Assembly (NCBI GenBank): GCA_018696595.1
Contig: JABHQW010000005.1
Coordinates: 1 to 64,000 of the forward strand
DNA: 64,000 nucleotides
Reading direction: 5' to 3'
Source: Candidatus Woesearchaeota archaeon
GTDB lineage: Archaea; Nanobdellota; Nanobdellia; Woesearchaeales; GW2011-AR9
A model generated the notes under the pieces. That model made no database searches. It had not been told where the DNA came from and saw only the letters and a list, made by a program, of their open reading frames with translations. Below, piece after piece: positions 11,782 through 61,387 of the stretch. Position numbers and translations under genes: made by a program. Positions within the stretch are counted from its first letter, which is position 1, and the number at the start of each line of letters is the position of its first letter.

Positions 11782-11817
11782 CTATGTAACACCACTATTT
11801 AAATGTTGTTGTCTGAT

Positions 11818-11920
11818 GTACATATTTAGTTAGACTTGCACGCCACGATTACGGGAGCTTACTTATTAACAATTTTTGGCTCCCGTGTGGCTCCATTGGC
11901 AAAGCCAACTAAATATGTAC
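11818..11920 (-). ncRNA. Putative structured RNA/hairpin, family B copy 1 (unassigned)
   Basis: 14-bp perfect basal stem GTACATATTTAGTT; core UGC-CAAUGGA-GCCAC-(ACGGGAGC..GCUCCCGU)-AAUC-GUGGC-GU-GCA. Strand inferred from the flanking genes. Confidence 0.6.
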
Positions 11921-11967
11921 TGTCGGGTGTTACTTTTTTGTAAGACGTATGACATTTATGTAATATG

Positions 11968-43769: not shown

Positions 43770-45061
43770 TTTTGCACCTCTACAGATTCTTGAGCTTCTT
43801 GAATCAATTTTGTGTTTTCACTAATGTCTCGATTCATTATTTTCATCAATTGCTCTTTTATTGCTGGATTTTGCAACAATTCCATAAGTGCTGGTTCGTA
43901 TCTTTCAAAGCCACTAACTTTTTTCTTGTAGTTGCCTACTTTGTCTGTAAGCATTTTGTTTTCAATTATTAGTTGATCGTTGATTAATCTTTCATCCATT
44001 GATTCAGATTGAAGTATTGCTCTTTCCGAAGAAAATATTTCGTTCATAACTTCAGAATTTTTTACTCCAGCTCTTTTGTAGTAGATGTCTGGTACTCGAC
44101 TTGCAAGATTCCAACCAAATCTGTAGCAAAAGTTTTGGTATGTCTTGATTCTTGTTGCGTAATAGGTGGCACTTGATGCCCTGATTCTGTGTGGAGTTAC
44201 ACTTTTACCTAAAACTTTCATTCCTTTTTGATAAAGTTTGGTTCGTATTGCATCATAGCTGTAATTAAACAAGTATGCTTCTTTGTTGTTTGGGTCTGTA
44301 TGATGTTTTTCAATATACTTTAACAAGTAAATGCTTGACAAGTATAATCCTATGGTTCTTCCATTGCCACTTTTTGCAATTGAGTTTGTTATGTTTATTG
44401 AAACATATCTTGCTTGTGCATTTGGATAAACTATATCTTTAATTTTTAGGTTAAGAATCTCGTTTATCCTTGCTCCAGAATCAAACATTAACATTACTAA
44501 AGTTTTCATCTTGAATTTGGTGAATGAATCTTTCATCAATTGGAGTTCATCTATTGAGTAGATTTGTCCTTCTGGTCTTGGTTCGTAAGTATCCATCCAT
44601 ACTACTTCTTTTGGATAAAATTCATTTTTGCCTTTTAGCCATTTCCAAAATTTTCTTATGACTTTCTTGATGGTTGCTTTAGTTGTTTCTGCATATTCTT
44701 TTCCAGTTAATGGTGATACAAGGATTCCATCTTCCAACTTTTCAACAAAATCTCTCATATCTTGTTCGTTTATTTCTCTGAACTCTTTTCCTTGCATCCA
44801 TCCATCAAAATTTCTTAAAATGCCCATTACTCTTAATGCTCGGCTTTTACCTATTGACCTTTTTTCTTGCTTTTTAGAGGGGTCACCAGTTCGCATATCT
44901 CTTAAATAATGCAAAATGTCACTTTTGTTCACACTTTTACTATCTTCAAAGAATTTAGTTTTGGCTTTATCGTACACAGATTCGTGGTCTTGTATCCATC
45001 TTCGCCCATTTTTGCCTATTCTATCTACTACTGTTTCTACAATTTGTACTTTAGTTTCCAT
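43766..45061 (-). CDS. Tyrosine recombinase/integrase
   Basis: DSGARINE (R), KSG (K), TPHRIR (HxxR), RFGW, PDIY (Y); RBS GGAGGA. Confidence 0.92.
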   Translation of the reverse strand: METKVQIVETVVDRIGKNGRRWIQDHESVYDKAKTKFFEDSKSVNKSDILHYLRDMRTGDPSKKQEKRSIGKSRALRVMGILRNFDGWMQGKEFREINEQDMRDFVEKLEDGILVSPLTGKEYAETTKATIKKVIRKFWKWLKGKNEFYPKEVVWMDTYEPRPEGQIYSIDELQLMKDSFTKFKMKTLVMLMFDSGARINEILNLKIKDIVYPNAQARYVSINITNSIAKSGNGRTIGLYLSSIYLLKYIEKHHTDPNNKEAYLFNYSYDAIRTKLYQKGMKVLGKSVTPHRIRASSATYYATRIKTYQNFCYRFGWNLASRVPDIYYKRAGVKNSEVMNEIFSSERAILQSESMDERLINDQLIIENKMLTDKVGNYKKKVSGFERYEPALMELLQNPAIKEQLMKIMNRDISENTKLIQEAQESVEVQK

Positions 45062-50413: not shown

Positions 50414-50743
50414 ATGGAAATTAAAAAAAAAGAGTTGCCAGCTAAAGTGATAAGAATTTCTTTATCAGAAAACAAACAAGAAGTGGGGTGGGTAAGAGTT
50501 TACTTAATTAAAAACGAATCTCACAATTGTTATTATGCTCTTATTGAGAATCTATTTGTTAATGAAGAACATCGTAGAAAAGGTTATGGCAAACAATTAA
50601 TGTTGGCAGCAATTGAAGAAGCAAAGAAACAAAAATGTACTTGGATTATTGCTAATAGCAGATATTCCAGAGAACAGATTCATCAATTCTACCAGAAACT
50701 GGGATTTGAGGATTATGGAAAAGAGTTTAAGATGGTTCTTTGA
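50414..50743 (+). CDS. GNAT acetyltransferase
   Basis: LFVNEEHRRKGYGKQLM..FYQKLGF. Confidence 0.88.
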   Translation: MEIKKKELPAKVIRISLSENKQEVGWVRVYLIKNESHNCYYALIENLFVNEEHRRKGYGKQLMLAAIEEAKKQKCTWIIANSRYSREQIHQFYQKLGFEDYGKEFKMVL

Positions 50744-50830
50744 ATAATAGTGTTTTACTACTAATTCACAATTAACAATATTTATATAGATTAGTGATTC
50801 CATTTTAATTTCGTTTAGGGGTGGTATATT

Positions 50831-59076: not shown

Positions 59077-59182
59077 GCACCCGTAGTTTAATGGCTAGAA
59101 TCCGGGCCTTCCATAAGGCCTGTAATCAACTACTCGCTTTTGAAGTGAGCCTGTGATCCGGGTTCGAATCCCGGCGGGTGCA
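59077..59182 (+). tRNA. tRNA-Gly(UCC) with a 34-nt canonical intron (59114-59147)
   Basis: GCACCCG/CGGGTGC acceptor; CGGGC-CTTCCA[intron]A-GCCTG; BHB helix CUUC/GAAG. Confidence 0.92.
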
Positions 59183-61221: not shown

Positions 61222-61291
61222 TAATGTACCTCTTTTTAGTTAAGTAATGTTTTTTTGTTTATATATTTAACTCACCAACTCATTTAATTTT

Positions 61292-61372
61292 GTTATAAAA
61301 CCAACATGCACGGCGCTTTAGATTTCTTCTAGCGAAGAAATGCGCCTCCATTGGCAATGTAGGTTTTATAAC
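61292..61372 (-). ncRNA. Putative structured RNA/hairpin, family B copy 2 (unassigned)
   Basis: 11-bp basal stem GTTATAAAACC; core UGC-CAAUGGA-GGCGC-(AUUUCUUC..GAAGAAAU)-CUAAA-GCGCC-GU-GCA. Confidence 0.6.
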
Positions 61373-61387
61373 TAGATGAGCAACTAT

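Follow-up and report, generated by a model that had tools for sequence, protein, structure and literature searches.

A lineage-restricted family of intergenic hairpins in woesearchaeal genomes, probably palindromic mobile DNA elements of the MITE type

Two intergenic hairpins in a 64,000-nt stretch of woesearchaeal DNA (hereafter, the window) probably belong to a family of MITE-type mobile DNA elements that is confined to one lineage and whose members are small, palindromic (fold-back) and non-coding. In the model that we propose, each element would be one long imperfect inverted repeat, with terminal inverted repeats that form the basal stem, a conserved asymmetric core inside and a variable apical stem-loop that may carry further modules. 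Integration would take place at a staggered cut, into intergenic spacers and in either orientation relative to the genes. The source genome of the window (1.19 Mb, 97% complete) is designated G000; G001 and G002 belong to the same genus.

The features of the two hairpins are as follows.

11818..11920, + strand: copy 1, whole hairpin element (GTACATATTTAGTT-terminus subfamily; + is the strand bearing TCCATTGGC; from RNA and DNA folds and the covariance model)
11818-11831 with 11907-11920, + strand: copy 1, basal stem GTACATATTTAGTT
11838..11850, + strand: copy 1, 5' half of the core, GC-AC-GCCAC and then bulge GATT (GC 11838-39, AC 11840-41, bulge 11847-50)
11842-46 with 11887-91, + strand: copy 1, 5-bp helix, GCCAC with GTGGC
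11851-58 with 11879-86, + strand: copy 1, apical stem
11887..11901, + strand: copy 1, 3' half of the core, GTGGC-TCCATTG-GC and then one unpaired A (loop TCCATTG 11892-98, GC 11899-900)
11810..11817, + strand: TGTCTGAT, possible decayed target-site duplication of copy 1, with partner TGTCGGGT at 11921-11928 (6/8 identical; weak alone)
61292-61372, + strand: copy 2, hairpin (basal stem 61292-302 with 61362-372)
61279..61380, + strand: copy 2, extended hairpin, in which outer stem CTCATTTA / TAGATGAG surrounds the 61292-61372 hairpin
61308..61321, + strand: copy 2, 5' half of the core, GC-AC-GGCGC and then bulge TTTAG (GC AC 61308-11, bulge 61317-21)
61312-16 with 61342-46, + strand: copy 2, 5-bp helix, GGCGC with GCGCC
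61322-29 with 61334-41, + strand: copy 2, apical stem
61342..61356, + strand: copy 2, 3' half of the core, GCGCC-TCCATTG-GC and then one unpaired A (loop TCCATTG 61347-53, GC 61354-55)

Both copies folded far better than shuffled sequences. The RNA fold z-scores ranged from -5.6 to -8.2 for both copies on both strands, and the DNA fold z-scores from -6.4 to -7.0. In the DNA fold, copy 2 gained an extra outer stem, in which 61279-86 pairs with 61373-80. A covariance model (CM) built from the family matched copy 1 at C8:11827-11912 (57 bits, E = 1.7e-18) and copy 2 at C8:61298-61367 (65.1 bits, E = 9.5e-22). Therefore, the likeness of the two copies is not due to chance. Each copy sits between two minus-strand ORFs, past the stop codon of one and ahead of the TATA box and start of the other. 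Copy 1 is flanked by a nucleotidyltransferase-domain protein and an ORF without assignment, and copy 2, a member of the AAACCAACAT subfamily, by an MgtC/DUF4010 protein and an ORF without assignment. The first-pass annotation had described the two hairpins, a core common to both and their placement between the 3' end of a minus-strand gene and the next promoter, and was correct in each respect. Its CAAUGGA/GU loop is this core as seen from the minus strand.

Further copies were found by regular expression and then with covariance model R1, which was built from an alignment (A1) of 15 copies. The proposed search of the genome and its relatives turned a supposed family of two into one of 22 significant copies in G000, with more in the relatives. 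The G000 copies are spread over 7 contigs and dispersed singly, at a spacing of roughly 50 kb. The CM core measures 63-120 nt and the whole elements 93-219 nt; they are non-coding and lie in intergenic spacers too short for a gene. Near-identical copies occurred at different loci. The basal stems, which had been regarded as unrelated, fall into subfamilies that recur and are common to different genera.

The core has a fixed architecture. One arm consists of GC, AC, a 5-bp helix and a 3-5-nt bulge, and the other of the helix complement, TCNWTTG, GC and one unpaired purine. The columns C13, A14, C15 and G16 were invariant in the alignment of 15 copies, and the loop letters GCAC / TCNWTTGGC (TC-N-W-T-T/G-GG-C) were nearly invariant across 51 distinct copies from several genomes. 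In these 51 copies, 94.6% of the cells in the 15 modelled pairs were standard pairs, compared with 67.2% in shuffles, and 219 cells carried changes on both sides, compared with 6 one-sided G-U states. These results indicate that the pairing is constrained. The 5-bp helix appeared as GGCAC, GGCGC, GCCAC, GGGGC, GGCCC, GGTAC, GGGAC, AGCAC or GCCGC, each with its exact complement. Thus, the covariation of the middle helix and the structural constraint that had been proposed from two copies were borne out by the larger set.

Further modules can occupy the variable apical stem-loop, among them a second core that points the other way. Such nesting was seen in G002 and G016 and in four composites of G000: one core lies within the apical part of another, diverged and oppositely oriented core, and a third inverted repeat encloses both. 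The G000 composites are located as follows.

Contig 3, 284058-284235: composite bordered by the exact 9-bp duplication CTTTTCTAT
Contig 3, 349824-349955: composite
Contig 4, 80703-80833: composite
Contig 5, 44845-44976: composite

The four G000 composites are three-layered, in the manner of a Russian doll: an inner core, a diverged opposite core (with a TTTGTATACTG...CAGTATACAAA stem) and an outer inverted repeat.

The hairpin ends were examined for target-site duplications. Candidate ends were enumerated for 42 non-redundant copies, an exact direct repeat abutting both ends was required, and permuted flanks served as the control. Exact 8-bp repeats abutted an inverted-repeat end in 7/42 copies (permuted-flank mean 0.05) and exact 9-bp repeats in 4/42 copies (permuted-flank mean 0.01), which makes 11/42 copies with a duplication of either length. 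Examples include CTTTTCTAT, GTAGAAAAA, CTATAAACA, AATTACAA and CTAAATCTT. The first of these borders the 178-nt composite at about 284.06-284.23 kb of contig 3, AATTACAA borders a 93-nt simple copy at about 122.3 kb of the same contig, and CTAAATCTT is a duplication in G002. Exact 8-9-bp direct repeats at the base of the hairpin indicate integration at a staggered cut, and the exactness of the duplications suggests that the family was recently active. The inserted unit is the whole hairpin, and the basal stems are its termini, a set of related inverted repeats (GGCTTCATCCRGAATA, GGYRCTGTCCAGAG, GGYRCTGTCAAGTT and GTRAGTATTAAGTT).

The outer terminus GGCTTCATCCRGAATA also bounds elements of 120-330 nt with other structured cargo (L105-L108, in G004 and G017). 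These two genomes have few or no family cores, and 8-9-bp duplications (GTTTATCT, GGTTAATAC) occur there too. This observation suggests that the elements have a common shell with exchangeable inner modules.

Comparison of orthologous loci provided a second line of evidence. The locus of window copy 2 measures 125 nt in G000 but 23 nt in G001, where the element is missing; in G002 it is occupied by a copy of a different subfamily. Five syntenic spacers of G002 (L075, L090, L094, L087 and L055) carry copies that are missing in G000. At the L075 site, the sequence of G000 is continuous and the flanks have no spacer between them. A further site was noted in the window itself, at about 50730-50753. 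The flanks of L055, which in G002 enclose an insertion of ~380 nt bearing a composite copy, are only ~23 nt apart in G000, and the window therefore contains an empty site. Where syntenic spacers of G000 and G002 are both occupied, the copies differ in subfamily or orientation, and most are therefore independent insertions into the same spacers. Orthology was mostly ruled out on this basis; copy 2 and G002:C19 are a possible exception.

The duplications of the window copies themselves are less distinct. Copy 1 has the degenerate 8-bp pair listed above, and two sisters from its subfamily have an exact 8-bp duplication (L027) and an 11-nt flanking repeat (L051). Copy 2 has no clear duplication in its flanks. 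L075, which belongs to the same subfamily as copy 2, is bounded by GGCACTGTCAAGTT termini, and this is the site that is empty in G000. We infer that both window copies are older insertions with decayed duplications.

The family has a narrow distribution. With the CM, copies were detected in 14 of the 35 genomes sampled from the same GTDB family; of 25 further families in the order, none had a copy. The number per genome ranged from 0 to 39, and both extremes were found within the genus (none in G001, which is 84% complete, and 39 in G002). An exact-pattern scan of species genomes returned almost only MAGs labelled Woesearchaeota or Nanoarchaeota and a few chance matches in G+C-rich bacteria. 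Among IMG/VR viral contigs, the core was not found, and the terminus gave one chance match inside coding DNA. The element also occurs in records CAZIMI010000003.1 (L146) and CAZIMI010000004.1 (L175), which are titled 'uncultured Methanosarcinales archaeon'; that organism label looks wrong.

Near-invariant loop letters, stems that change in pairs, strong folds and conservation across genera are also what a family of small structured RNA genes would show. Either a protein would bind to the internal loop and bulge, or processing of the long stems would yield small RNAs, and the gene family would have spread by duplication or by riding on mobile DNA. In keeping with such a gene, copy 1 is preceded on the + strand, at a distance of about 20 nt, by a TATA-like TATTTAAAT. 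Several results led us to regard this explanation as distinctly unlikely. The helices of functional RNAs tolerate G-U pairs, but the arms of the family stay Watson-Crick complementary without wobble intermediates. Alignment of each 5' arm with the reverse complement of its 3' arm, comprising about 1,570 pairs, gave 6 G.T, 12 A.C and 32 other mismatches. These counts show no excess of wobble and no preference for either strand. Consistently, the summed RNA fold energies of the two strands were equal (-1462.6 vs. -1461.0 kcal/mol). One copy, with GGTGC/GCGTC, offered a strand assignment by wobble pairs, but the totals show no asymmetry. In addition, the orientation relative to genes was unbiased among 34 copies (11 antisense, 7 sense, 13 in divergent spacers and 3 in convergent spacers). 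No T-run was seen at a consistent distance after the stem in 12 copies whose flanks were read by eye, and no gene family recurred beside the copies. Finally, the target-site duplications and empty sites show insertion of DNA, and a genome of the same genus has no copy.

Rfam gave no match to the family. At the gathering threshold, the only hit in the window was an intron-containing tRNA, and permissive scans around both copies returned noise only (E above 2). The tRNA gene lies at 59077-59182 on the + strand (53 bits), and its length of 106 nt implies a ~35-nt intron; no tRNA was reported anywhere in the 64-kb window by ARAGORN. By eye, RUGAUGA/CUGA boxes were absent and an ACA box was not consistent. 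The core is not a K-turn because it has no tandem G.A pairs, and the hammerhead, 11-nt tetraloop receptor and loop E readings were ruled out by inspection of geometry or sequence. The first-pass annotation had considered a ribozyme or a guide RNA. The near-absence of G-U pairs, the unbiased orientation, the duplications and the empty sites speak against both, and against a stand-alone RNA gene. Its expectation that no known Rfam family would match was upheld, and the CM E-values place the core similarity beyond chance. A protein-binding motif, also suggested there, is plausible for the asymmetric core, on DNA more likely than on RNA. In the MITE-type model, the core would be the recognition module for a predicted mobilising protein and would probably be read on a DNA hairpin or cruciform. 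The elements may have an RNA role in addition to their mobile-DNA nature.

Copies on one contig tend toward the same orientation over more than 100 kb, as seen in contigs of G000, G014, G033 and others. The sum of the per-contig majorities was 40/45 (P = 0.0006), and 28/33 (P = 0.03) after copies less than 7 kb apart were merged. The direction of neighbouring genes does not explain this shared orientation. GC skew tracks gene orientation and is therefore unusable for replichore assignment. A replication-strand bias of insertion would fit the shared orientation.

Insertion into one replication strand is expected of REP/REPIN-like elements, which are moved as single-stranded DNA hairpins by a RAYT-type (IS200/IS605 Y1 HUH) transposase. 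The family resembles them in that it is palindromic and intergenic, keeps an asymmetric hairpin while the stems vary, and has nested or doublet arrangements; Y1_Tnp genes are present in some relatives. The genomes do not pair the enzyme with the element, however. Y1_Tnp (PF01797) was absent from six genomes with copies (G000, G033, G014, G034, G035 and G012) and present in four without copies (G017, G019, G026 and G030). Moreover, IS200/IS605 and REPIN insertion is not known to make a target duplication, but duplications of 8-9 bp are present here. We consider a REPIN-like origin very improbable.

Other candidate mobilising enzymes fared no better. Besides Y1_Tnp, ten Pfam families were absent from G000, namely IS240 (IS6), DDE_Tnp_1 (IS4/IS5), IS1595, Transposase_mut (IS256), IS66, rve, the TnpB Zn-ribbon, ISL3, RVT_1 and Cas1, and the eleven families do not track the element among the relatives. 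IS6 was a candidate from the GGYRCTGT termini, which we take to resemble IS26 ends, and was rejected: its transposase was absent except in G021. IS4/IS5 was a candidate from GGCTT...GAATAA, presumably similar to the ends of IS903, an element that we assume likewise to make a 9-bp duplication; it was absent from G000, G033 and G018. IS1595, IS256, IS66, rve, TnpB, ISL3, reverse transcriptase and Cas1 were discarded on their absence from G000. Although G000 contains recently inserted repeats, none of its ORFs of 100 aa or more is multi-copy. The element termini were not found at the transposase loci fetched from relatives, a limited sample, and in 12 metagenome contigs the outer terminus occurred only as MITE-sized pairs, 120-380 bp apart. 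The 8-9-bp duplication, as read from the sequences, points to an integrase or transposase that would make a staggered cut.

Host-selected intergenic hairpins with a function in cis (bidirectional terminators, insulators, or a site for a chromatin or replication protein) would account for copies between a stop codon and the next promoter, for the T6-7 runs on both strands of most apical stems, for the occupation of the same spacers across genomes by different subfamilies in different orientations and for the chromosome-scale orientation tendency, but such an origin is very improbable, as a genome of the same genus has none, divergent-promoter spacers (13) are favoured over convergent 3'-end spacers (3), the opposite of terminators, the apical stems of 3/16 copies, window copy 1 among them, are G+C-rich and have no T runs, and the target duplications show recent insertion.

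We compared the family with known systems. Prokaryotic MITEs, such as Correia/NEMIS of Neisseria and those derived from IS elements in Haloarchaea and Sulfolobus, are likewise small (about 75-220 bp) and non-coding, have terminal inverted repeats and short target-site duplications, occur in many intergenic copies, are taxon-specific and polymorphic for presence or absence, and form one long hairpin. The family shares with MITEs its size, lack of coding sequence, terminal inverted repeats, target-site duplication and dispersed, polymorphic copies. An autonomous partner with the same termini was not found in G000, at the fetched transposase loci or in the metagenome contigs, which together are a limited sample. 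The family differs from MITEs in that its most conserved part is the internal loop-helix-bulge core and not the termini, which are of several subfamilies. Furthermore, its modules nest in alternating orientation, and no cognate insertion sequence or transposase was found among the eleven families in G000. A Woesearchaea genome ranks with the most MITE-dense archaea in a published census (PMC11602168), so the kind of element is already known; the family would add a new variant to it.

The bacterial REP/REPIN/BIME elements with RAYT (TnpA-REP) are also extragenic palindromes with alternating composites, a structure kept by paired changes and a possible single-strand bias (PMC2817692). In contrast, the family is archaeal, its copy-rich genomes lack a Y1 transposase and its target duplications are 8-9 bp. 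Integron attC sites, like the family, are folded imperfect palindromes: the base is paired, a spacer is unpaired, the inner helix is short, and there are extrahelical bases and a terminal structure that varies. Unlike attC sites, the family has no RYYYAAC/GTTRRRY boxes at the base, its basal stems vary by subfamily, and its copies are single, dispersed and bordered by target duplications rather than arranged in cassette arrays. With archaeal bulge-helix-bulge substrates and K-turn sRNAs (C/D, H/ACA), the family has in common a helix between unpaired stretches on opposite strands, a long stem and a DPANN host. A bulge-helix-bulge has two 3-nt bulges and a 4-bp helix, whereas all copies of the family have a 7-nt/2-nt internal loop, a 5-bp helix and a 4-5-nt bulge. 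The bulge-helix-bulge-like layout mentioned in the first-pass annotation was thus not confirmed, as the geometry is not 3-4-3. K-turn sRNAs differ in their tandem G.A pairs, their C/D or ACA boxes and their Rfam matches, none of which the family has. Overall, the family failed the tests for REPIN/RAYT, attC, bulge-helix-bulge, K-turn and Rfam families alike.

Several observations count against the MITE-type reading. First, no mobilising enzyme was found among the eleven Pfam families in G000. Second, conservation is stronger in the core than at the termini, an unusual pattern for a MITE. In addition, the duplications of the window copies are only degenerate (6/8 for copy 1, indistinct for copy 2). 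Finally, the reading does not predict the shared orientation along contigs. An alternative, which we consider rather unlikely, is that the core is the handle of a novel archaeal transposition system: a protein beyond the known transposase families would read the core in a hairpin of single-stranded DNA or in a cruciform and insert the element at a staggered cut of 8-9 bp, in a process coupled to one replication strand. The coupling would explain the same orientation along a contig. If this is true, the elements have spread in DPANN genomes without a recognisable transposase. In a milder version, a MITE may spread a protein-binding module that is put to use by the host.

The interpretation as MITE-type palindromic DNA removes a tempting false lead: the conserved loops and covarying stems suggested a new ribozyme or guide RNA but probably arise from a palindromic mobile element. 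Three quick tests, namely whether G-U pairs are nearly absent, whether direct repeats flank the hairpin and whether orthologous sites are empty, separate such an element from an RNA and apply to several hairpin families of Woesearchaeota. The finding places a recently active, modular and nested element in symbiont-type archaeal genomes of about 1 Mb. With eleven transposase, reverse transcriptase and Cas1 families absent, it raises the question of what moves the element. The genus-level specificity of the element could also mark contigs, plasmids or viruses as belonging to these uncultured hosts.
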